From the NCBI GenBank assembly GCA_045657125.1, contig JAZOSM010000002.1, positions 1-43,319 on the forward strand: a DNA stretch of 43,319 nucleotides, given 5' to 3'. The notes under the pieces are model-generated. The model ran no database searches, was not told the DNA's origin, and saw only the letters and a list, made by a program, of their open reading frames with translations. Each line of letters begins with the position of its first letter. The first letter of the stretch is position 1. Origin of the DNA: Eubacteriales bacterium (lineage in GTDB: Bacteria; Bacillota; Clostridia; Oscillospirales; SIG627). Of the stretch, positions 1 to 34,604 are shown in pieces. Both the position numbers and the translations under genes were made by a program.

Positions 1-13
1 TCGTTCTTTTTTT

Positions 14-198
14 ATCCAAGCCGACAGGCTTGGTATATCATCAGCCTGTAGGGCTGTATATCATTACCGCACCTGTGCGGCGTATATCATCACGCGTAGC
101 GTGTATTTTTCTCGGCTTGATGATATAGAACTTCTTTCGAAGTTGATGATATGCAATTCCTTCGGAATTGACGATATACAACGGCAAGACGTTGATTT
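14..198. repeat. Hairpin-ladder element, copy A (3 forward TATATCAT linkers, 3 reverse ATGATATA-type linkers, 7 variable hairpins)
   Basis: Hairpins at 16-33, 42-56, 65-82, 91-103, 128-145, 154-170, 179-194. Linkers TATATCAT at 34, 57, 83 and ATGATATA/ATGATATG/ACGATATA at 120, 146, 171. Same architecture at 1067-1274 and 11443-11627. Confidence 0.9.
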
Positions 199-228
199 AT
201 AAAATTCAACCTCAGGTTGAAAAATATA

Positions 229-991: not shown

Positions 992-1031
992 GTCCTAAAA
1001 GGAAGTGGCATCTTTTTTGTCAACACGCGCC

Positions 1032-1066
1032 AAAAAAGAGATACTCAATTGAGTATCTCTTTTTTT
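1032..1066. terminator. Intrinsic (bidirectional) terminator directly upstream of element copy B
   Basis: Palindrome AAAAAAGAGATACTCAATTGAGTATCTCTTTTTT. Confidence 0.8.
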
Positions 1067-1274
1067 ATCCAATCCGAAGGATTGGTATGTAATCGCCGTT
1101 AGGCGTATGTAATCAGTTCGCTCTGCGAACTGTATGTCATCAAAGCATTAGCTTTGTATGTTTTTTCCTTCGGATTGATTACATACCGACTTTGTCGGAT
1201 TACATCCACGGCGTTGCCGTGATTACATACATTTTGTTACGAAAATGATTACATGCAACACTTCGTGTTGATTT
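1067..1274. repeat. Hairpin-ladder element, copy B (linker variant TATGTAAT / ATTACATA)
   Basis: Hairpins at 1069-1085, 1094-1105, 1114-1132, 1141-1156, central TCC-TTC-GGA, 1186-1198, 1207-1221, 1230-1247, 1256-1270. Linkers TATGTAAT/TATGTCAT at 1086, 1106, 1133 and ATTACAT(A/C/G) at 1178, 1199, 1222, 1248. Confidence 0.9.
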
Positions 1275-1296
1275 AGTGGCGGATTTCTGCTATACT
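1268..1296 (+). promoter_or_regulatory. sigmaA-type promoter whose -35 is the right end of element B
   Basis: TTGATT(1268-1273)-17 bp-TATACT(1291-1296) with extended -10 TG; RBS GAGGTG then ATG at 1316. Confidence 0.6.
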
Positions 1297-1315: not shown

Positions 1316-1558
1316 ATGAAAGAAAATCTTTTGCTTAAATATGCCGAACAGTTGGCATTTCAAATTGAAATTTTATGCAAATCTTTAGAACGCAAAGACA
1401 ATTCTAATGTGATTTTTCAAATTCGTAAATCTTCTTCGAGTGTCTTTGCAAATATTACTGAAGCTCAATATCCTCAAAGTTTATCCGATATGCTTTCTAA
1501 ATTCAAAATTGCTCGTAAAGAGTGTGTTGAAACAGAAAGTTGGTTAAAACTTTTATAG
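1316..1558 (+). pseudogene. Four-helix-bundle protein (23S rRNA IVP / TIGR02436 / Avd-like family), C-terminally truncated
   Basis: QIRKSSSSVFANITEA...DMLSKFKIARKECVETESWLKLL matches the family consensus (QLxRSxxSxxANIxE...FxxKLxIAxKExxETxYWLxLL). Stops at 80 aa, lacking the last helix expected in ~110-120 aa members. Confidence 0.8.
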
Positions 1559-11330: not shown

Positions 11331-11406
11331 AGGGATGTAGCCAAGCGGTTAAGGCACCAGACTTTGACTCTGGCACTCGTGAGTTCAAATCTCGCCATCC
11401 CTGCCA
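11331..11406 (+). tRNA. tRNA-Gln (anticodon TTG)
   Basis: Acceptor AGGGATG/CATCCCT, D-arm GCC..GGC, anticodon arm CCAGA-CTTTGAC-TCTGG, T-loop TTCAAAT, encoded CCA; 76 nt. Confidence 0.97.
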
Positions 11407-11442
11407 AAAAATTCGACAAGTTTCAACTTGTCGAATTTTTTT
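11407..11442 (+). terminator. tRNA terminator directly upstream of element copy C
   Basis: AAAAATTCGACAAGTT-TC-AACTTGTCGAATTTTT. Confidence 0.85.
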
Positions 11443-11627
11443 ATCCAAGCCGCAGGCTTGGCATATCATCACGACGCAGTCGTGTATATCATCAAGGGCG
11501 CATTGCGCCCTGGTATCTCATCACGCGCCAGCGTGCATTTCCTGCGGAATTGATGATATACAATGCTTCGCATTGATGATATACCGCAACAAGTTGCGGA
11601 TGATATACACGGCTTTCGCCGTGATTT
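11443..11627. repeat. Hairpin-ladder element, copy C
   Basis: Hairpins at 11445-11461, 11470-11484, 11493-11513, 11522-11535, central TTCC-TGC-GGAA, 11561-11575, 11584-11599, 11608-11623. Linkers CATATCAT/TATATCAT/TATCTCAT then ATGATATA x3. Confidence 0.9.
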
Positions 11628-11779
11628 ATGCAAGAGTTCGAATTCATACGCAAAACTGCTGAAAATATCTTTTTTGATTGATGTGTTCCCTTCGGGAATA
11701 TGATGCCGCTACGCGAATGATGTCACGTTGGATGACGATTCTATTCCGTTTTTTGTGCAGATTGACTGCTTGTTTTTTG

Positions 11780-11808
11780 TTGACAAAGCAAGTTCTTCCT
11801 TATATAAT
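11780..11808 (+). promoter_or_regulatory. sigmaA promoter of large surface protein gene
   Basis: TTGACA-17 bp-TATAAT. Confidence 0.75.
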
Positions 11809-11903: not shown

Positions 11904-14900
11904 ATGAAAAACGCAAAACTTTTTTCGGTTTTAGCGTCCCTGGTTCTTCTCGTCGCTTGTGTTGTCGGTGTGCTTGTATTTGGCACTTCTGCGGCAGATG
12001 AGACGGTTCAGTGGACGATTGACGGCACTACTTATTCTACCATCAAAGAGGCGTTGACCGCTGCCGAGGGCAAAAACTGGGCGGCATCCCAGACCCTTGT
12101 CATTACGGTAGATCCTACAAAATTGGCAAATGAGAGCATTTCTCACGATGCAAACGGCACGGCTTATGCAGGTGGAATTGCTTTTGGTCAGAAAACGATT
12201 TTCCGTGCAGACGGCACCCGTCTGCCCATTACTATCAAGGGTTCTTCTGATCGCGCGGCTTTTACCTTGAATATCACTACCGATACAAAGGTTGCCTGTG
12301 CCAACAACTATACCTTTGAAAATCTGACTTTCCCCATTGGCGCAACCTCTAAAAATACCTATTTTTTTGCAGGATCGGGTGTGATTCGTCTGGAGAACGT
12401 GGCTACCGGCACCGGTGTCCTCGGAAAAATGAGTGGTGATAACTTCACCGCCCGCGCTTTTGACGGTTGGACTGCGGATCATGTTGCCGCAAACGCTTAT
12501 AAGGGAAGCACCAATACCTATACTTCTCCGAAGGTTCTTACTTCGCTTACCATCGGTAATGACGTTGTTTACGTTCACGATGCAACCAAGTGTAATACCG
12601 CCGCCGTTCAAGATTACGACGGATGGGATACTTATGCCGGTGTTACGTTGACCCCTTCCGATATCGTTGCCGAGATTGTTCTTGACGGCGGCAGAGTCGG
12701 TGACTTTGCGGGACGTGTAGGTACGAGCCCCGTTGCAGAATCCATTCAGCGCGTGGAAAAAGGCGCGATTGCAGGTGCTTATTTTGCAAGCAGCGGTAAC
12801 TTTGTAAATGCCACCGCTTATTCCGGAAGAACCCATTATACAGGAAATATTACCATTATCGTCAACGGCGGTACCATTGAAAAGTCCACCAGACTTTTGC
12901 ATACTGCACAGGTAAACGGTAACTATAAGGTGTATTTCAACGGCGGTACTTTTAAAAGCTACGTACAGGTCGGTTACGGTGAGAACGTAATTACCGGTGA
13001 CTACGAGCTTAACGTTACGGGCGGTTTGTACGAAGACACCGCAAATGGTTTCTATGCGCATCCCTCTGCAAGAATTGAAGGAAAATGCGTAGTAAATATT
13101 TCCGGCGGTACTTTTAAGCATTGGTTCCGCGGTACTCATTTGCAGCCTTTCGACGAAGACGGAGCGCCGACCACGTTCAAATCCATTGAGATCAACGTTA
13201 TGCCCAATGCCAAATCTCCTGAATTGGATCCCGTTTTCGAAGGCAATTTTTACGGAAATTATAAAAACGGCGGCACTATTGAAACGATGAAGATCAATAT
13301 CTCCGGCGGTACCTTTAACAGCTTTGTTACAAATACCCACTCGGACGGTGTTGGAACGATTGTCAATACCGTTACCGGCGGTACCTTCAACGGAGCCTTT
13401 TATCCCGGAAAAGTAACCTATGCAGGAGTAATCGGAAGCATTACCAATAAAGTTTCCGGCGGTACTTTTAACGCGGGCTTCTTCGGCAACGGACAGTACG
13501 GAGACGCTTCTCCCTGTCCTACCGTTTTGAATGAGATCTCCGGCGGTACCTTCAACGGCTATTTCTACGGCGGCGGTGAAATGGAGAAATGCTATGCGGA
13601 AACCATTACCAATAAAGTTTCCGGCGGTACTTTCAACAGCTATTTCTACGGCGGTTCCAAAGTTTCGAATTATGCGTCTACCGACGTTATCAATGAGATC
13701 TCCGGCGGCACTTTTGTAAAGGCGTTTCTCGGCGGCAACGTTAGTGGAACCGTAAATAGTGTTACCAACAGAATTTCCGGCGGTACTTTTAGCTCAAACT
13801 TCTATGGAGGCAGTGACGGCGGTACCATCAAAGTCGTTGCGACCGAGGTTACAGACGGTACCTTTGGCGGTATTTACTTCGGCGGCAACTACAGCAGTGT
13901 TACGACAGATATTACCAATACGTTTAAGGGCGGTACCTTTAACAACCTTGTAATGGGCGCAGGTAAGGCTTCCACGACGGGTAACGTAAGTAATACCATC
14001 TCCGGCGGTAATTTCAAAAGTCTCTTTATGGGCGCAGGCGTTCTTTCCGCAGTAGACGGCAACGTTACCAACAACATCAGCGGCGGTACTTTTGCAAAGC
14101 CCGTTTTCGGCGGTGCTTGCAACGCTGCCATTACCGGTACGATTACCAATAATCTGTGCGGTCCCGTTACCTTTACCCAGGGCTTCTGTGCAGTTCACGG
14201 AACCAAAGCAAACGGCGGTTCTACAGGCTCTATCGTCAATCGAATCTATGCGGATGCAAACGGAAAGGCTCCCAAGATTCTGAATCCTCCCGCAAACGAA
14301 GCGGCAGGATCTGTATTTACCTACGAGTCAACGAAATATGACGTAAGCGATACCAACGGATTCTCCTTCCTCGGCGGTACTTGCTACGGTACGATTACAG
14401 GTACCATCACCAATACGGTGGAAGCAGGCGAATTCGGTACTGCAAGCATTGGTATGTTCCACGCAGGAAGCCGTAATTCTGCCATTGGAAAGGATGCAAA
14501 CGGCGTTTCCGTTAACAACCTTATCAAAGGCGGTACCTTCCACTTCCGTTTCTACGGCGGATGTCTCAACGGCACTGCAAGCGGCGAGACTAGAACTGTG
14601 GTTGAGGGCGGTGTTTTTGAGAAAGAATTTACAGCCGGAAACCGTACTATGTCTTCTTATAACAAGCCGATTACGTTAATCATTCGCGACGGTGAATTTC
14701 TCAGCAAGGTTTACGGAACTTATTTCGGCTATACCGCAGATCAGAGTGCCAGGGGTCAGATTTCCTCTAACGTTATGGTGAATATCGAAGGCGGTATTTT
14801 CAGAAACGATATTTACGGTATGGGTAACAACGGTGCCGCAACTGCAACTTACTCCAATGGCAGCGGTATTACATCAGACGGCTCCGTGCTTGTCAATATC

Positions 14901-17189
14901 TACGGCGGTACCTTCTACGGCAGCATAAGTCCCACCAACGAAGCCCCCGTTGAAGCTAATATGCTTGGTACGGCACGCGTTACCGTTGAACCGAAGCACA
15001 GCGACGTGATGATCGGCGGCAAGGTCGTATCTCGCTTTGCGGCAGAAAAGATTTCCGTTGTGGGCGGTGAATATAAGATTCTCGTAAACAGAGACGGCTC
15101 TTTGCAGGCCAATGAATCTGCAGAAGGCACCATTGAAGTGGTGCAGACCGATATGTGGAAAAAGTCTACGTATCTTGCACTTCCTGCAGGTCACACCGCT
15201 ACCGTAAACGCTTCTACTGCAAAAGGCGCTTACGGCTACTTTAAGACAAAGCTCGGTCAGCAGGGCGAGATCATTGAGGTATACGGAGATGCTTTGGACC
15301 TTGGTGCTTCCCTGGTCCTGACCGACCGCATTGCGGTAAAGTTTCAACTGAATAAGGAACTTGTTGATGCAGTTGAAAACTTTACTTATTCCTTTACCTT
15401 GCCTGACGGAACCGTTTTGGCAGAGGGTGATGCAGACGATCTGAAAGATATGATCGAAATGACGGAGTTTGAGTATTATACTCTGACCTTGAAAGCCCTC
15501 GGCATTTCTCAGTTTGATACGCCGATCACGGCGAATATCAAGGGAATCTGGGAGGGTGATACCTTCTCCATTTCCGCCTTGGCTTATGCTGCGGTTGATG
15601 CTTGGGAAGGAAATGATAACTTCGTTTTGATGGCGAAGTCTATTGTAAATATGGCTGCAGCGGCGAAAGACGATACGCTTCCTTACCGGTTGACTCCCGA
15701 TGCCGTTGAATACCAGCGCAAGACTCCTACCAAGGATAACGATGCTCTGATCTCCTTTACCTCCAAGAGTCTTTTGATGAGCAGTGCCGTAGGCGTTCGC
15801 CTTGAGGGTACTGTAGCAAATGCTTCCGATGCGGAAGGTATGATTGTCAAAGTAAACGGAAACAACGTAACGAACAGAGCGCTGATTCAGGTGGAAGGAA
15901 ATTCCGTTTTCGTAGATCTGTTCTTTACCGCTTATGGTATGAGCAAGGAATTCAGCCTTGAAATTCTTGATAAGAACGGAAAGAATTGCTTGACGATGTT
16001 TGAGCGATTGGATTCCTTTGCGGCTTTGTATGGCGCAGACCACAAGCTTGCGGTTTCCCTTTTGTCTTACATTCAGGCAACCGCTGCTATGGAAAAGGCA
16101 ACCTTTAATATGGAAGCGACCGATTCCGAGATCGCACATCTTAACAGCCTTTATGAAGGTGAGACTGTTTACTACGGAGATATCCACGGACATCCCGGCG
16201 GCGGAATCATCGAGGATGGTAAAGTAGATATGTCCGTTTGGGTAGCAGACAGAACTACCATCGGCGTTGACTTCTACACGGCTATGAACCATAAGCAGGT
16301 CGCACATATGTACGACGACGGATGGGACGATACCGTTATGATCGGCGGTTCCGAGCCTGCTACTTCCATTACCAAGAACGGAAAGAAAATTTCCGTACAC
16401 TACAATATGATCGTTCCCAATCCCGAAGCGCTGATTGAGGTTCTTCAGCTTTTCCCCGAGTTTAAATATACCGGCGGAACGGGTGATATTGAACTGAATA
16501 TGGGCACCTTCGGTTATCCCGGATTTACCTACGATCGCTTCAACGAGCTTGTTTCTGCCATTAAAGAGCGCGGCGGAACCGTGGTGAACGTGCATCCCAA
16601 GCAGCAGTACACATCCGACGATCCCTTGGACTACTACTATCAGGATTATATGGGTCTTGAGGTGTTCTACTCCTACACCGACAAGAACATCCACGGCAAA
16701 GATTCCCAGGATAACTACAAGCTCTGGACGGATCTTCTGGCTCTCGGAAAGAGAGTTTGGGCAACTGCAGGTTCCGATAGTCATAATTCGCCCACCAACA
16801 GCGGTCTTACTACCCTTTACGCTTCTCAGCGACTCAATACCAAGTACGTAGAACAGTTGGTTAGCGGTAATTTTGCTCCCGGATACGCAGGCATTCGTAT
16901 GGCAATCGGTGATGCGGAAATGGGTGGACATACCGATTTCGAAGGTAAGAGGCTGATCTTTTCCGTTGGTGATATCCACGATCTGTATCTGTCTAAGACC
17001 CGCGCATACAGAGTCAACGTAATCACCGATCAGGGCGTTGTATTCTCCACCGTAATCGATGGTACCAAGACGAGTTACTTCTCTCTGGACGCTGATGAAA
17101 ATGCGGCATTTTACCGCATTGAGGTCATTGATGAGTCGATTCAGGGTCTGCCCATCGTAGGTCTCGGTAACCCCATCTGGAACGACTGA
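11904..17189 (+). CDS. Large secreted protein: signal peptide, tandem 'NxISGGTF' beta-solenoid repeats, C-terminal PHP-type metallohydrolase domain
   Basis: RBS AGGAGG; signal peptide ending TSA-A; many (I/V)SGGTF..FYGG repeats; C-terminal YGDIHGH, DFYTAMNH, VHP, GLEV, AGSDSH. Confidence 0.85.
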   Translation: MKNAKLFSVLASLVLLVACVVGVLVFGTSAADETVQWTIDGTTYSTIKEALTAAEGKNWAASQTLVITVDPTKLANESISHDANGTAYAGGIAFGQKTIFRADGTRLPITIKGSSDRAAFTLNITTDTKVACANNYTFENLTFPIGATSKNTYFFAGSGVIRLENVATGTGVLGKMSGDNFTARAFDGWTADHVAANAYKGSTNTYTSPKVLTSLTIGNDVVYVHDATKCNTAAVQDYDGWDTYAGVTLTPSDIVAEIVLDGGRVGDFAGRVGTSPVAESIQRVEKGAIAGAYFASSGNFVNATAYSGRTHYTGNITIIVNGGTIEKSTRLLHTAQVNGNYKVYFNGGTFKSYVQVGYGENVITGDYELNVTGGLYEDTANGFYAHPSARIEGKCVVNISGGTFKHWFRGTHLQPFDEDGAPTTFKSIEINVMPNAKSPELDPVFEGNFYGNYKNGGTIETMKINISGGTFNSFVTNTHSDGVGTIVNTVTGGTFNGAFYPGKVTYAGVIGSITNKVSGGTFNAGFFGNGQYGDASPCPTVLNEISGGTFNGYFYGGGEMEKCYAETITNKVSGGTFNSYFYGGSKVSNYASTDVINEISGGTFVKAFLGGNVSGTVNSVTNRISGGTFSSNFYGGSDGGTIKVVATEVTDGTFGGIYFGGNYSSVTTDITNTFKGGTFNNLVMGAGKASTTGNVSNTISGGNFKSLFMGAGVLSAVDGNVTNNISGGTFAKPVFGGACNAAITGTITNNLCGPVTFTQGFCAVHGTKANGGSTGSIVNRIYADANGKAPKILNPPANEAAGSVFTYESTKYDVSDTNGFSFLGGTCYGTITGTITNTVEAGEFGTASIGMFHAGSRNSAIGKDANGVSVNNLIKGGTFHFRFYGGCLNGTASGETRTVVEGGVFEKEFTAGNRTMSSYNKPITLIIRDGEFLSKVYGTYFGYTADQSARGQISSNVMVNIEGGIFRNDIYGMGNNGAATATYSNGSGITSDGSVLVNIYGGTFYGSISPTNEAPVEANMLGTARVTVEPKHSDVMIGGKVVSRFAAEKISVVGGEYKILVNRDGSLQANESAEGTIEVVQTDMWKKSTYLALPAGHTATVNASTAKGAYGYFKTKLGQQGEIIEVYGDALDLGASLVLTDRIAVKFQLNKELVDAVENFTYSFTLPDGTVLAEGDADDLKDMIEMTEFEYYTLTLKALGISQFDTPITANIKGIWEGDTFSISALAYAAVDAWEGNDNFVLMAKSIVNMAAAAKDDTLPYRLTPDAVEYQRKTPTKDNDALISFTSKSLLMSSAVGVRLEGTVANASDAEGMIVKVNGNNVTNRALIQVEGNSVFVDLFFTAYGMSKEFSLEILDKNGKNCLTMFERLDSFAALYGADHKLAVSLLSYIQATAAMEKATFNMEATDSEIAHLNSLYEGETVYYGDIHGHPGGGIIEDGKVDMSVWVADRTTIGVDFYTAMNHKQVAHMYDDGWDDTVMIGGSEPATSITKNGKKISVHYNMIVPNPEALIEVLQLFPEFKYTGGTGDIELNMGTFGYPGFTYDRFNELVSAIKERGGTVVNVHPKQQYTSDDPLDYYYQDYMGLEVFYSYTDKNIHGKDSQDNYKLWTDLLALGKRVWATAGSDSHNSPTNSGLTTLYASQRLNTKYVEQLVSGNFAPGYAGIRMAIGDAEMGGHTDFEGKRLIFSVGDIHDLYLSKTRAYRVNVITDQGVVFSTVIDGTKTSYFSLDADENAAFYRIEVIDESIQGLPIVGLGNPIWND

Positions 17190-29491: not shown

Positions 29492-29529
29492 GGAGTATGG
29501 AAAGAAATGATAAAAAAGGATTGATGTGT

Positions 29530-31824
29530 ATGAAGATAAAACTTCCGGAAGAAGTCATAACGGCTTTCCGTAAAAAAGGAATCCTTGCAGACGAAGCACT
29601 GTTTTTTCTGAAAACCGATATGGGACGGGAACAGTTGTATTGCGATGCCTATACTTTGGTAACCGAAGAGGGGATCGCTACGCTGTTTTGTCTCGACGTT
29701 TTGAAAGAGAAAAAAGGTGCTTCTTTGTTTTCACCCCGTAAGAGTGAATCGGCATTGCGGGAACTAGACTACCGATATATTCCCCTGGATGAGGTAAAGT
29801 CCATTCAGTGTGAGGAACTTTTGTCGGTTCTTCGGTTGATTGTGACGCGCACGGACGGGCAGGACGAGGTTTTGTTTTACACCACAGCCGCCTGCCGCAA
29901 AAAGGCTTTTTCCTTTATAGAGCGTTTTCAAGCCTGGCGAGAAACGGGTAAGCTTCCTCAGGAAAAACGTGAACGTGGCGGAGTTTGCCCCAAGTGCCAC
30001 CGTCCTTACGACGATCCCGAGAAAAAAATCTGCAATCACTGTGTTAGCAAGATGGGGCTTGTTCGAAAACTCATCCCCTTTTTCATTCGCTATCGCGTTC
30101 AAATCGCACTTGTATTTTTAACGGTTTTGTTTTCTTCCGCGCTGAGTGTAATTACGCCTTATCTGAACAGTAAGGTCCTTTACGACGAGGTGCTTTCTCC
30201 GGATTCACCCCGTTACGGTGCCGTGCTTTTTCTGGTGCTTTCCATTGCTCTTGCAGGTCTTTTGCGAGCGTTTGTTACCACCGTCAACGGCATCATCGGT
30301 GCAAAGGTTTCTGCATACGTTTCCTGCGACTTAAAAAAGACGATTTTTTCATCCTTTGAACGCTTGTCGTACTCCTTTTTCACGTCCCGTCATACGGGCA
30401 GACTGATCACGCAGATCAACTCCGACGCAGAAACTCTGTATTGGTTTTTCTGTGACGGCGTACCGTATTTTTTGACCAATGTGATCCAAATGATCGGCAT
30501 TGCCGTGGTGATGTTTACCATCCACGTGCCCTTGACGATTTTGATTTTGATTCCCATTCCCATTATGTTTATCGGGTACGTTTTGGTACTGCGTATGTTC
30601 CGCAGACTCCACGCGGAAAACCACGCGCACCGTTCCCGTTTCAACGGAATTTTATCCGACGTTTTGGGCGGTATGCGTATCGTAAAGGCGTTTTCCCGTG
30701 AACAGCAGGAAATTGAGCGTTTTGATGATAAAAGCCGTCGTCTTTCCGCATCCAAATTGGAAATCGATGTGAAGAACCACACCATCTTTCCTTTGTTGAA
30801 TTTGGGAATTCGCTTAAGCGTTTATTTGGTTTGGGGCTTCGGCGGATATTTCGTTTTGAAGGAACTTGCAAATCCCGGAAGCGGTATCAGCTACGGCGTT
30901 TTAAACCTGTTTATCAGTTATCTTGCAATGCTTTACACCCCGTTGAATTTCTTCGCGAACTTCCTAAGCCATATGGCAAACGGAATGAATGCGCTTCAGC
31001 GCTTGTTCAGTATTATGGAGGCAGAGCCTGACGTAAAGGAAAAGGAGAATGCCACGAGCCTTGAAAAGGTGCGCGGAGAGGTGGTTTTTGACCACGTGAA
31101 TTTCTCATATACTCCCGGCAAGAAAACCATTCAGGACGTTTCTTTCCGCGTGGAGGCGGGGAAATCTCTCGGTATTGTAGGTCATACGGGCGCGGGAAAA
31201 AGTACCCTGGCAAATCTTTTGACCCGTCTGTACGACGTTGAAAGCGGATCGGTTTCCATCGACGGAGTCAATCTGAAAGATTTGACCATCAAAACACTCC
31301 GCGACCACGTTGCCATCGTATCGCAGGAAACGTATCTGTTCCGCGGAAGCATTATGGATAACATCCGCTATGCATCACCCGAAGCTACGGAGGAAGAAGT
31401 TCTTGCCGCATCCAAAGCGGCAGGCTGTCACGACTTTATTATGTCTTTCCCCGACGGCTACGATACGCAGGTGGGAACGGACAAAAAGATGCTTTCCGGC
31501 GGTGAAAAGCAACGCGTTTCCATTGCCCGTGCAATTTTAAAAGACCCTGCCATTTTGATTCTGGACGAAGCTACCGCTGCCATGGATACCAAGACGGAGC
31601 GAAAAATCCAGGAGGCTCTGCGGGTCATTTCCCAAAACCGCACTACCATTACCATTGCCCACCGTCTTTCCACCCTGCGCGATGCAGATCATTTGATTGT
31701 CATTGAAGACGGAAAAATGGTGGAAAGCGGCACCCACGAAGAACTTTTGCAGCGTGACGGAGTTTATAAAAAACTCTATACGCTCCAAATGGAAGCACTG
31801 AAAACCATTGGTATCGAAGAATAG
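29530..31824 (+). CDS. ABC exporter (TMD+NBD) with N-terminal extension and zinc ribbon
   Basis: CPKC-x11-CNHC, TM domain, GHTGAGKST, LSGGEKQR, ILILDEAT, IAHRLST. Start uncertain (29497/29524/29530). Confidence 0.9.
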   Translation: MKIKLPEEVITAFRKKGILADEALFFLKTDMGREQLYCDAYTLVTEEGIATLFCLDVLKEKKGASLFSPRKSESALRELDYRYIPLDEVKSIQCEELLSVLRLIVTRTDGQDEVLFYTTAACRKKAFSFIERFQAWRETGKLPQEKRERGGVCPKCHRPYDDPEKKICNHCVSKMGLVRKLIPFFIRYRVQIALVFLTVLFSSALSVITPYLNSKVLYDEVLSPDSPRYGAVLFLVLSIALAGLLRAFVTTVNGIIGAKVSAYVSCDLKKTIFSSFERLSYSFFTSRHTGRLITQINSDAETLYWFFCDGVPYFLTNVIQMIGIAVVMFTIHVPLTILILIPIPIMFIGYVLVLRMFRRLHAENHAHRSRFNGILSDVLGGMRIVKAFSREQQEIERFDDKSRRLSASKLEIDVKNHTIFPLLNLGIRLSVYLVWGFGGYFVLKELANPGSGISYGVLNLFISYLAMLYTPLNFFANFLSHMANGMNALQRLFSIMEAEPDVKEKENATSLEKVRGEVVFDHVNFSYTPGKKTIQDVSFRVEAGKSLGIVGHTGAGKSTLANLLTRLYDVESGSVSIDGVNLKDLTIKTLRDHVAIVSQETYLFRGSIMDNIRYASPEATEEEVLAASKAAGCHDFIMSFPDGYDTQVGTDKKMLSGGEKQRVSIARAILKDPAILILDEATAAMDTKTERKIQEALRVISQNRTTITIAHRLSTLRDADHLIVIEDGKMVESGTHEELLQRDGVYKKLYTLQMEALKTIGIEE

Positions 31825-31832
31825 GAGGCGTT

Positions 31833-32345
31833 ATGATACAAGGCTTGGAAAAAATTACCGATTCTTTTTTGATTGATCGCGAAAATACCACGTTTTATGC
31901 CTCGCCCACAGGTCTTTTGATGGTGAAAATCCCCGAGAAGAACTATGAGGGAAGAGCTTTTCTTGCTTTGGCGTTCCCTTTCAAAACCGAGGAAAATTAC
32001 GTTTGCGTGCAAAACGAGGAGCACGAAGAATTGGGAATGATTCGTTCCCTGTCGCTTTTGGATGAATCCGCCGCGGCACTTTGTCGCGAGGAACTGAAAA
32101 AGAAGTATTTCGCACCAAAGATTTTGAAGATTGTGAAAATCAGCGAGCGTTTCGGCTCCAGCTATTGGGATTGCGAAACCGACTACGGTATGAAAAAGTT
32201 TACGGTCAAGGATCCCCACAGAAGCATTTTGCGTTTGGGCGAGGATCGCGCTTTCGTGGTGGACGTAGACGGATGCCGCTACGAAATTGAGAGTCTGAAA
32301 GGAATGGACAAAAAGAGCCATTCCAAAATCGAACTATATCTGTAA
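31833..32345 (+). CDS. DUF1854 domain-containing protein
   Basis: AFPF, ELGMI, YFAPKI, WDCETDYG, DVDGCRYEI; typical position beside this ABC class. Confidence 0.8.
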   Translation: MIQGLEKITDSFLIDRENTTFYASPTGLLMVKIPEKNYEGRAFLALAFPFKTEENYVCVQNEEHEELGMIRSLSLLDESAAALCREELKKKYFAPKILKIVKISERFGSSYWDCETDYGMKKFTVKDPHRSILRLGEDRAFVVDVDGCRYEIESLKGMDKKSHSKIELYL

Positions 32346-32360
32346 TCGGAGAAAAGAAGA

Positions 32361-34604
32361 TTGGATAATCAAATTTTGATGGAACATGTCAAAAAGCTTT
32401 TGGAACGCGACCACGGTGATCGCGTGATTTTCCACCTCACCTCGAATTTGAATCAAAAAGGAGAGGGTAGGGAAAACCTCGTTTTGTTTGGTACAAAGGG
32501 CGTTTACGTCTATTGCGCGGAGACCGAGTCAATTTCCGTCTATCTGTTTGAGAAAATGGAGGACGTCCGCTACGAGACCTTTATGGGCGGAGGTACCTGC
32601 GTTGTTTTCTACGACGGACAGTGGGCGGAGCTTTGTCGCGCTTTCGGTTCCGAAAAGGAAAATCTTTCTCAGCTGACCCGCATTCTCAAAGAGGTACTTG
32701 ACGGTGTGTTAAAGCCGGAGGAGGCTTCCTTTACGGAGCGCCATACCGTTTGCCCGAAATGCCGCCGTCCTTTGGGAAAGGGCAGTCAGGTCTGCCCCAA
32801 TTGCTCGGATAAAAAAGGGTCCGTGAAACAGCTTTTGCAGTTGATTCGCGGTCAGTACGGCTGGATTGCCTTGTCGATGCTTCTCTTTTTCGTGCACTCC
32901 CTGCTGAACGTGCTTTTGCCGATGATTCAGGGAACTTTTGTGGACGATTATTTGACTACAAATACCCCCGACGCCTTTTTGAAGGACTATATGCCTGCGG
33001 TTTTGGTGGTCGTATCCATGGCGGTAATTCGAATCTCCGTCGTTCTATCTACGATTTTCAGAAACGTCATTTTGTCTAAAATCAGTACCAAAACCGTAAT
33101 AGAACTTCGCCGCAGACTTTATGAAAAAATTCAGTCCCTGTCCGTTGCGGGAATTTCCCGACATACCGCAGGTGACCTGATGAATCGCGTCTCGGGCGAT
33201 ACCACTACCATCGCGCAATTTATGACGGAGTTTTTGCCCTCGATTCTCGAGCAGCTTTTCGTTGTGATTTTCGTAGGCGCCGTGCTCTTTTCCTACTCGG
33301 TGAAAATGGCGCTGATGATTTTGATTCCCACACCGTTCGTTGCCATTTTGTTCCGCATCGTTTGGCGTAAGACCCACCGTTTGTACCACCGTCATTGGGT
33401 GGAAAATTCCAACGTCAATACGATTCTTCACGACGTGTTCCAGGGCGTTCGCGTGGTCAAGGTGTTCGGAACGGAGAAAAACGAGATCGATAAATACGAT
33501 CGGGCGGTTCAGGCACAGCGTGATATTGCCGTTCGCAACGAAATTGCCTGGGCGAAGCTTGTTCCTTACGCGGAATATTTGATTCAGGTGGGTAATTTTA
33601 TTTTGCTCTACTATGCAGGCAACGAAATTTTAAAGGAAAATATGACCATCGGTCAGTTGACGATGTTTTCCTCTTTCGTCAGCTTGATCTATACACCTTT
33701 GCGCTCCATGGCAAGTTATCCTCGGAGAATCCAGCGGGCAGCAACGGCTGTTGCAAAGGTGTTCGAGGTGCTTGACGAAGAACCTGACGTGGCGGATAAA
33801 AAGGATGCCGTGGACGTTGATATCCGCGGACAAATTGACATTGACGGCATTTGGTTCGGTTATGACGAAAACGAAAACGTTTTGGAAAACGTCAGCGTTT
33901 CCGTTTCCCCCGGTGAAATGCTGGGAATTGTAGGCAGAAGCGGTGTCGGAAAAAGTACGCTGATCAATTTGGTGATGCGTCTGTACGACGTTCAGCGCGG
34001 TTCCATTCGCATCGACGGAATGGACGTGCGGGATATTTCTCAGCACTCTCTGCGCTCGCAGATCGGTGTGGTTCTTCAGGAAACCTTCCTGTTTGCAGGC
34101 TCGATTTACGAGAACCTGGCGTATGCAAAGCCTGACGCTACTTACGAGGAGGTCATTTCCGCCGCAAGGCTTGGCGGCGCCCACTCCTTTATTATGAAGC
34201 TTCCCGACGGCTACGATACCGTCGTAGGAGAAAAGGGATATACCCTGTCCGGCGGTGAACGGCAAAGAATTGCCATTGCCCGCGCCATTCTGCACGACCC
34301 CAAGATTCTGATTTTGGATGAAGCGACTTCCGCATTGGATACGGAAACGGAAAAACTGATTCAGGAATCCTTGGCTTATCTGTGCAAAAATCGTACGACA
34401 ATTGCCATCGCCCACCGTCTTTCCACCCTGCGAAATGCCACCAAGCTTTTGGTTTTGGATAAAAAGACCGTTGCGGAAGTGGGAAGCCACGAGGAACTGA
34501 TGGAGAAGGAAGACGGCATCTACAAGTCGCTGGTTATTGCTCAGCGCGAAATGTCCCGCGTAAAAAAGACAGATGTTTCCGAGGGACAAACAAATAACGA
34601 TTGA
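32361..34604 (+). CDS. ABC exporter (TMD+NBD) with N-terminal extension and zinc ribbon
   Basis: CPKC-x10-CPNC, GRSGVGKST, LSGGERQR, ILILDEATS, IAHRLST. Confidence 0.9.
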   Translation: MDNQILMEHVKKLLERDHGDRVIFHLTSNLNQKGEGRENLVLFGTKGVYVYCAETESISVYLFEKMEDVRYETFMGGGTCVVFYDGQWAELCRAFGSEKENLSQLTRILKEVLDGVLKPEEASFTERHTVCPKCRRPLGKGSQVCPNCSDKKGSVKQLLQLIRGQYGWIALSMLLFFVHSLLNVLLPMIQGTFVDDYLTTNTPDAFLKDYMPAVLVVVSMAVIRISVVLSTIFRNVILSKISTKTVIELRRRLYEKIQSLSVAGISRHTAGDLMNRVSGDTTTIAQFMTEFLPSILEQLFVVIFVGAVLFSYSVKMALMILIPTPFVAILFRIVWRKTHRLYHRHWVENSNVNTILHDVFQGVRVVKVFGTEKNEIDKYDRAVQAQRDIAVRNEIAWAKLVPYAEYLIQVGNFILLYYAGNEILKENMTIGQLTMFSSFVSLIYTPLRSMASYPRRIQRAATAVAKVFEVLDEEPDVADKKDAVDVDIRGQIDIDGIWFGYDENENVLENVSVSVSPGEMLGIVGRSGVGKSTLINLVMRLYDVQRGSIRIDGMDVRDISQHSLRSQIGVVLQETFLFAGSIYENLAYAKPDATYEEVISAARLGGAHSFIMKLPDGYDTVVGEKGYTLSGGERQRIAIARAILHDPKILILDEATSALDTETEKLIQESLAYLCKNRTTIAIAHRLSTLRNATKLLVLDKKTVAEVGSHEELMEKEDGIYKSLVIAQREMSRVKKTDVSEGQTNND

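Follow-up and report, generated by a model that had tools for sequence, protein, structure and literature searches.

What is the role of a short intergenic array of mini-hairpins behind a tRNA gene, and does it act as RNA or as DNA? The question is raised by positions 11445-11622 of the window, i.e. the whole stretch of 43,319 nucleotides from a member of the Eubacteriales that was analysed. The array comprises eight short hairpin positions joined by a 10-base word, which is present three times in a form like GTATATCATC and three times as the reverse complement. It is preceded by tRNA-Gln(TTG) (11331..11406, + strand), whose CCA (11404-11406) is the docking point of the cassette, and by what its sequence indicates to be a bidirectional terminator (A-run, 10-bp stem, T-run; 11407..11442, +), which opens the cassette head; hairpin types like this one are also found behind many different tRNAs. 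Hairpin 1 (11445..11461, +; loop cGCAg) has a 5' arm and loop that are complementary to the centre segment in most homologues. The left arm (11461..11534, +) carries linker words at 11461-70, 11484-93 and 11513-22, each followed by a hairpin; the loops are GCA, ATT and GCCA, with the stable loops on the + strand. The centre segment (11535..11551, no strand assigned) is partly altered to a hairpin with a TGC loop in this copy, which reduces its complementarity with hairpin 1. The right arm (11552..11622, - strand) contains the inverted words at 11552-61, 11575-84 and 11599-608 with their hairpins, whose loops read GAA, CTTG and GAAA on the - strand. A truncated conserved cassette tail of type T3 (11630..11676, +) is complete in relatives, where it ends in CA before the next head. 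This cassette carries no gene. Directly after the truncated tail, 11678-11730 hold a short decayed remnant of another array class, with GTGATG-type words and a TTC hairpin.

Two further copies are located at the start of the window. The second head (terminator end and array; 8..200, +) is situated at the contig edge, and its cassette includes a cargo gene of the histidine phosphatase family (PF00300; 302..991, +) and a conserved tail of type T8 (1008..1032, +), which ends in CCA directly before the next head. The T8 tail also follows an unrelated gene in L153, and in L154:2282-2620 an element of ~220 bases, bounded by long inverted repeats, splits it close to its end. The third head (1033..1296, +) comprises a terminator (1033-1066) and an array (1067-1275) with the variant word GTATGTAATC, and -35/-10-like boxes at 1268-1296 overlap the last hairpin. 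It is followed by a truncated gene (80 aa; 1316..1558, +) for an Avd-like four-helix-bundle protein of PF05635, from the clade that goes with the GTATGTAATC word. The genome of the window holds nine full and two decayed copies of the array, and related loci come mostly from uncultured gut Clostridia. Elsewhere in the window, 11904-17189 (+) encode a 1761-aa protein without a Pfam match, whose start resembles a signal peptide and which contains many repeats of 25-28 residues with a GGTF-like motif at their ends, and this gene has its own perfect TTGACA-17-TATAAT promoter at 11780-11808; 29497-34604 contain two tandem ABC-transporter-like genes of about 750-775 aa, 70-85% similar in parts at the DNA level.

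The sequence-only reading of this DNA had listed GNA-type loops in the left halves of the three copies and TNC-type loops in their central and right parts, usually closed by C-G, and had proposed loop statistics over homologues as a check. All the loops listed are present at their positions; on the top strand, the copy at 11445-11622 reads GCA, GCA, (ATT) and GCCA on the left and TGC, TTC, (CAAG) and TTTC on the right. The list had left out non-conforming loops (ATT and CAAG in this copy; CCTG, TCT, ATTA, TTT, GTT and others in 8-200 and 1067-1275), none of which has the wrong polarity. Elements were parsed from the genome of the window, from 28 of the 30 loci of one set and from 124 loci of another, giving 116 two-armed elements, of which 108 are unique and 106 can be oriented. 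The central three or four bases of the spacer between two words were taken as the loop, with no folding program used, and spacers outside 9-32 nt or with more than two mismatches were removed before counting.

The asymmetry is real and general over the 106 elements: internal left-arm hairpins have 105 G(N)NA, 8 T(N)NC and 90 other loops (n = 203), and internal right-arm hairpins have 0, 128 and 62, respectively (n = 190). For distinct spacers, the corresponding numbers are 48, 5 and 71 on the left (n = 124) and 0, 53 and 33 on the right (n = 86). The terminal hairpins agree, with GNA in 98 of 100 copies of hairpin 1, 63 GNA to 1 TNC in hairpin 4 (n = 100) and 64 TNC to 1 GNA in hairpin 8 (n = 96). 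C-G closure holds for 96 of the 124 left and 65 of the 86 right unique spacers. The stem mismatches on the top strand reveal a similar flip, with 22 G·T and 9 A·C in the left arm and 2 G·T and 9 A·C in the right (Fisher p 0.004, which overstates independence because the element copies are related). This flip of loops and wobbles between the arms suggests that the left arm is selected for folding of the top strand and the right arm for folding of the bottom strand. Among the 124 and 86 distinct spacers none is shared between the arms, directly or reverse-complemented, and the mirror is therefore maintained while the stems turn over. Both strands of the region fold far better than shuffled sequences (z -8.2; 0/200).

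The further proposal that each strand carries its GNA hairpins in the 5' half is correct for this class and three relatives, but in six sister classes, including Gut-1, it is the 3' half. Classes D-I, to which the Gut-1 word belongs, have their arms in the opposite order, and the word-strand loops are GNA in 127 cases, TNC in 0 and other in 50; the Gut-1 word by itself gives 71, 0 and 23 and follows the same polarity. The rule is that GNA hairpin and linker word share a strand, irrespective of the 5' half. Since polarity follows the word strand across classes, the unit consists of a word and a hairpin on one strand. When 365 unique hairpins of ten word classes (class words handwritten, so that some classes may overlap) are read on the word strand, 219 loops are G(N)NA, 5 are T(N)NC and 141 are other; this last group, ~39%, counts against the main reading.

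The composition of these 365 hairpins bears on the choice between DNA and RNA. GNA accounts for 123 of the 213 triloops, 117 of them closed by C-G, and GNRA for 54 of the 96 GNNA loops, i.e. no more than expected by chance, and an in-register UUCG (TTCG) loop is found on neither strand. In an RNA control of 324 terminator-like hairpins after genes of the same genome, GNA makes up 2 of 97 triloops, GNRA 15 of 17 GNNA loops, and TTCG occurs 9 times versus once for CGAA. The terminators heading the modules have a TTCG loop in 13 of 61 unique cases. The loop conservation expected of an RNA, GNRA or UUCG on one strand, was thus not found, and the loops are of the DNA type (cGNAg). According to the available part of PMC13037366, GNA is the only triloop that forms an extra-stable DNA mini-hairpin, the RNA version being much weaker, and GNA mini-hairpins bind SSB poorly. 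The hairpin at the promoters of phage N4, as described in PMC4496689, needs a C-G closing pair together with the loop bases G and A to extrude under supercoiling, and it is stable on one strand only; C-G closed GNA loops on one defined strand are also what the element has. ViennaRNA energies with DNA and RNA parameters do not discriminate, as triloops score identically on both strands. The metatranscriptome data consist of four runs of assembled contigs without strand, ends or level, which include records of 12-39 kb and may thus hold DNA. The array itself is located between a terminator and the next promoter.

These comparisons make it very probable that the element works as folded DNA rather than RNA, and it looks selected as DNA with strand-swapped arms. 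The earlier preference for a ssDNA or cruciform-type role over a one-strand ncRNA is well supported by the loop and wobble polarity. The two-fold strand symmetry that accompanied it stands in part: the arms are strand-swapped, with loops and wobbles flipped, but the symmetry is incomplete because the element always points the way of the tRNA (56 on the same strand, 0 on the opposite) and because a segment in the centre co-varies with hairpin 1 as its complement.

In 70 of 100 elements, the 5' arm and loop of hairpin 1 recur as their reverse complement in the centre, compared with a mean of 21.5 and a maximum of 35 after shuffling; hairpin 1 itself is intact in 98 of 100. This complementarity co-varies, and inspection of the sister classes reveals a like feature. 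Mismatches between the two, read on the top strand, comprise 13 A·C and 4 G·T (unique pairs 8 : 2), a weak lean to the non-sense strand. An invertible switch formed by hairpin 1 and the centre was considered and rejected, since the flipped form occurs 0 times in the loci examined versus 145 normal left ends, and in 0 of 201 genomes. The ladder fold, in which left words pair with right words and which is the minimum-energy structure, is not supported as a selected structure because the facing words show no covariation in 71 three-plus-three elements.

No Rfam family matches the array of the window. Gut-1 (RF01706) gives no match on this copy and scores 21.5-21.9 bits on two other copies of the class, compared with a gathering cut-off of 50; the over-cut-off Gut-1 matches in the same genome are one arm of sister-class arrays. 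These arrays share the two-arm design, the centre pairing and the PF05635 partner with the window class. In the part of Weinberg et al. 2010 (PMC2864571) that was available, Gut-1 was originally called an RNA and has a fixed short word with free-sequence mini-hairpins in gut bacteria. A fixed word alternating with variable mini-hairpins is likewise found in the window class, but the word is another one and the order of the arms is reversed. The catalogue entry for Gut-1 describes an RNA of one strand and names neither partner nor context. The element is related to Gut-1 but, by its score, not a member, and the shared polarity suggests that Gut-1 has probably been mis-filed as RNA and is DNA too. 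We also note one-armed arrays with 4-9 words in one orientation (L127, L130, L132, L134, L155, L176, L186, L192), which were mostly not seen behind a tRNA and keep the loop polarity where inspected.

Among 92 elements with enough upstream sequence, 56 start right behind a tRNA or tmRNA CCA on the same strand (29 types), and 0 do so on the opposite strand. A 96%-identical copy of the window module is located behind tRNA-Trp in another genome (G013), and the shared sequence starts in the last 8 nt of the tRNA. At the tRNA-Gln locus, 18 loci of the genus have a bare terminator, other inserts, or one or two heads of different classes. In a set of 179 heads, 107 are situated behind a tRNA and 6 behind a tRNA-like end. 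CA directly precedes 61 of the remaining 66 heads versus 233 of 699 control terminators, with some of the 66 junctions, and of the 61 with CA, being undetected or decayed tRNA or tmRNA ends and not independent tails. Behind the stop codons of unrelated genes there are recurrent tails of ~60 bases that extend to the junction CA, and the same tail type is found behind different tRNAs. The conservation of tails behind unrelated cargo genes points to a cassette unit, in which terminator, two-armed inverted array, often a promoter, cargo gene and conserved tail ending in CA follow each other in this order. Larger loci are stacks of head, gene, head and gene, co-oriented with the tRNA. In 31 of 102 class-A elements, a -35/-10 pair stands directly behind the array. 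Of 65 cases, 47 have their first downstream ORF on the same strand, 8 have it on the opposite strand and 10 have none. Tandem empty heads, which are gene-less, keep their arrays intact, as does the window copy.

Recombinase, transposase, reverse transcriptase (RT) and integron integrase are all absent from the 72 cassette-region proteins scanned, a subset of the ORFs taken from 17 of 20 multi-cassette loci and from genes located behind heads. That the tails are coding remnants of an integrase was rejected; their reverse strand gives short recurring peptides, but no tail continues into a recombinase ORF. Plasmid and phage collections gave no match, and two tail patterns gave 0 matches in viral contigs; 48 loci in viral contigs match the array pattern and were left out of all counts. 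Several other features of these loci were observed. Two tRNA-Leu(CAA) genes that converge on each other enclose one head, which is flanked by terminators on both sides (G000:C71:120-450); this arrangement is either real or an assembly artefact. Another recurrent insert after tRNA 3' ends or tails (L272, L280, L257, L324, G000:C86) opens with a long hairpin holding inverted T-loop-like words. The terminator loops of many heads (G000:C29, C37, C131) have a recurrent GTCTAC, common to different classes, whose reverse complement contains the REP tag GTAG.

Integron attC sites are folded single-stranded DNA, and integron cassettes are stacked in arrays, including arrays without an integrase. The cassettes described here are similar in that small gene cassettes are stacked one way at an anchor, in tandem and with recurrent boundary sites, and the sites are apparently selected as folded ssDNA. 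In contrast to integrons, no integron integrase is present among the 72 scanned proteins, the anchor is a tRNA CCA, and the cassettes bring their own terminator and promoter. By inspection, the site also differs from attC in being multi-hairpin with stable loops on both strands. The element would work like an integron cassette site without being one. The docking region is also that of tRNA-targeted islands as presented in the accessible part of the Islander report (PMC4383910), but the cassettes are without a tyrosine or serine recombinase among those scanned and usually without a duplicate of the 3' end of the target tRNA.

Three of the nine copies in the genome of the window precede a PF05635 four-helix-bundle gene. 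Over 41 genomes, whose kin are not independent, both element and gene occur in 24, only the element in 1, only the gene in 2 and neither in 14. A word/hairpin array is found within 1.5 kb of 22 of 30 PF05635 loci, and several of the remaining 8 have heptamer inverted repeats. The gene is present in cis at 14 or more of the 65 heads with enough downstream sequence, most heads being without it. On a tree of 53 proteins the word class changes 14 times (minimum 12, shuffled mean 32.3, 0/200 as low), and one PF05635 clade corresponds to each word class almost perfectly. Unlike these clades, the cargo family ADP-ribosylglycohydrolase is found behind two different word classes. The concordance of protein and word is also expected from co-inheritance, which counts against the binding reading. 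This wholly comparative set of evidence suggests that the PF05635 protein probably binds the array.

The predicted structure of the PF05635 protein (pLDDT 94) matches BT_0352 (2RLD), Xcc0516 (2GSC) and the Avd protein of diversity-generating retroelements (DGR; 4DWL, TM 0.80), which has the same fold, and the homology of PF05635 and Avd is noted in the available part of PMC10053308. In the DGR structure, as far as the portion of 10.1101/2023.10.23.563531 at hand describes it, Avd is an RT cofactor, and five Avd protomers all grip flipped-out bases of an RNA stem-loop. That structure illustrates how repeated short motifs could be read, yet it keeps the RNA reading alive. For homing, a DGR depends on a GAAA-loop hairpin in the DNA, which is extruded under supercoiling (PMC3240598, in part). 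Unlike a DGR, the loci here have no RT, template repeat or variable repeat; moreover, the solved Avd binds RNA, and the DGR has a single hairpin in place of a word/hairpin array. The element is paired with an Avd-like protein and is not a DGR. The 23S rRNA intervening sequences (IVS) with an S23p ORF, according to the accessible part of PMC4990558, place a PF05635 gene behind short repeats (Coxiella heptamers) in an inverted-repeat element, and heptamer-type heads occur here too. However, IVSs are cut from the rRNA by RNase III, whereas the elements here are located outside RNA genes, behind a terminator. A broken PF05635 gene after tRNA-Arg(CCT) (G000:C90) lies behind a long inverted-heptamer hairpin with no mini-hairpin array, a head type that recurs in relatives and recalls the Coxiella IVS heptamers.

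Candidate enzymes for a crossover at the CCA point were found outside the cassettes. A large serine recombinase family (PF00239, PF07508, PF13408), detected at E<=1e-90 in 68 of 301 genomes from this order (e.g. L361:997-2517, L459-L488), has genes that end in a tRNA-like T-loop...CCA before a displaced terminator; this gene end was seen by eye in most of 29 loci, and a strict pattern caught 10. Heads directly follow such a CCA end in L316, L397, L480 and L483. Serine recombinases make a two-base crossover, which fits the joining of this family at the same CCA point. These recombinases join at the docking point of the cassettes and displace heads; that they move cassettes does not follow. Their presence does not track that of the element (both in 14 genomes, only the element in 11, only the recombinase in 14, neither in 2), arrays are near 0 of 30 serine-recombinase (PF07508) loci, no tail was found inside or beside a cognate recombinase, and the genome of the window, which is 77% complete, has no serine recombinase. 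One serine-recombinase island could be traced to its tRNA, a 5-kb island behind tRNA-Leu (L491), and it has no array at its start. The genome of the window also gives six tyrosine-recombinase matches, none of them on the contig of the window.

The same folded DNA might instead serve transcription, as a supercoil-sensitive operator or activator that is bound by the PF05635 protein and acts on the promoter overlapping the last hairpin, while unrelated islands push the heads downstream. The location of the array directly upstream of a -35/-10 pair and of the PF05635 gene itself, the prevalence of same-strand first ORFs, the heads displaced by serine-recombinase islands and the precedent of the N4 promoters (PMC4496689, in part) all agree with this explanation. 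We regard it as unlikely, since cassettes without a gene, among them the window copy and the tandem empty heads, retain complete arrays, a two-armed strand symmetry is needless for a promoter, and conserved tails behind unrelated cargo genes indicate a cassette unit; we are slightly inclined to a role in mobility rather than only in transcription. A structured Gut-1-like RNA, made by read-through from the tRNA, in which hairpin 1 pairs with the centre and whose binding by the Avd-like protein would parallel that of DGR RNA by Avd, is quite unlikely. It would explain the fixed orientation relative to the tRNA and the covariation between hairpin 1 and the centre, and both the original description of Gut-1 and the RNA-level precedents of Avd and the 23S IVS, so far as their sources go, are in its favour. 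However, the polarity of loops and wobbles flips between the arms, in-register UUCG is absent and GNRA is at chance level, a terminator stands ahead of the array, the mismatches between hairpin 1 and the centre lean, if weakly, to the non-sense strand, and Gut-1 itself follows the polarity rule.

Movement through an RNA stage would require that a borrowed RT, aided by the Avd-like protein, reverse-transcribes the cassette RNA and then switches to the tRNA CCA, and that the resulting hybrid cDNA enters the tRNA gene by recombination. A precedent is the Mauriceville plasmid, the junctions lie exactly at the CCA of many tRNAs and of tmRNA, the tails end in CCA or ACA, and Avd is an RT cofactor. 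This route is nonetheless highly unlikely: no RT (PF00078) is found in the genome of the window, at 77% completeness, nor any among the 72 cassette-region proteins, a terminator opens the cassette, and stable loops would be needed on one strand only, yet are present on both. The sequence-only reading had named, among other roles, a REP/REPIN-like substrate of an HUH (RAYT/IS200) transposase. A short tag with a hairpin in inverted pairs is the design of REP/REPIN-RAYT systems, which share with the element the tagged hairpins, the inverted arrangement, the intergenic location and the multiple copies, and Y1 transposases occur in 21 of 41 genomes. The proposal is not supported by the comparison and is now most improbable. 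An array is within 1.5 kb of 1 of 30 Y1-transposase (PF01797) loci versus 22 of 30 PF05635 loci, and the co-occurrence of Y1 transposase and element (14/11/7/9) is not significant (p 0.53). The search for an element-flanked RAYT/IS200-like gene in the genome of the window gave an IS200 fragment only, with no array beside it and no full Y1 transposase. Moreover, the stems are free in sequence, with no sequence-conserved REP-type palindrome among the 124 and 86 distinct spacers, and insertion is strictly at tRNA ends in a fixed orientation.

The reading that we prefer, with doubt and confidence in equal parts, is that the array may be the folded-DNA head of a small mobile cassette docked behind the tRNA CCA and likely bound by an Avd-like protein. 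Each linker word would be followed by a GNA-capped mini-hairpin on its own strand, and these word-plus-hairpin units would be bound by the matching Avd-like four-helix-bundle protein, which would help in capture, movement or re-insertion of the cassette. The mini-hairpins would form singly, either in ssDNA during replication or transfer or, in the manner of the phage N4 promoters, by extrusion under supercoiling, and the inverted arms would let either exposed strand present one stable arm. Because the facing words do not co-vary, the words may act as independent sequence tags, read by an Avd-like pentamer. The crossover would be made by an enzyme encoded elsewhere, for which a serine recombinase is favoured because the dinucleotide CA is the only invariant junction sequence; this assignment is a tentative one that we hold to be somewhat less than probable. 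Taken to its full extent, the reading would describe a new integron-like system of gut Clostridia. Any tRNA CCA would offer cassettes a dock, each cassette family would be coded by a short word shown next to GNA mini-hairpins on one or the other DNA strand and read by its own clade of Avd-like pentamers, Gut-1 would represent one arm of the structure, and free-standing PF05635 proteins would be structure-plus-sequence DNA readers that load a borrowed recombinase. We consider this extended form speculative and rather doubtful.

In the literature covered, with most subscription journals outside it, no description of the arrays, the cassettes or the link to PF05635 was found. Two orphans become testable together, namely Gut-1, which entered the catalogue in 2010 as an RNA, and the free-standing four-helix-bundle proteins of PF05635, whose structures have been solved but to which no function is assigned. 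With the polarity of loops and wobbles, folded DNA can be told apart from RNA motifs by sequence alone, and the pairing of words with protein clades points to exact binding experiments. If the cassettes move as proposed, they would constitute a common route of single-gene gain and loss in gut Clostridia, with a docking site present in every tRNA gene.
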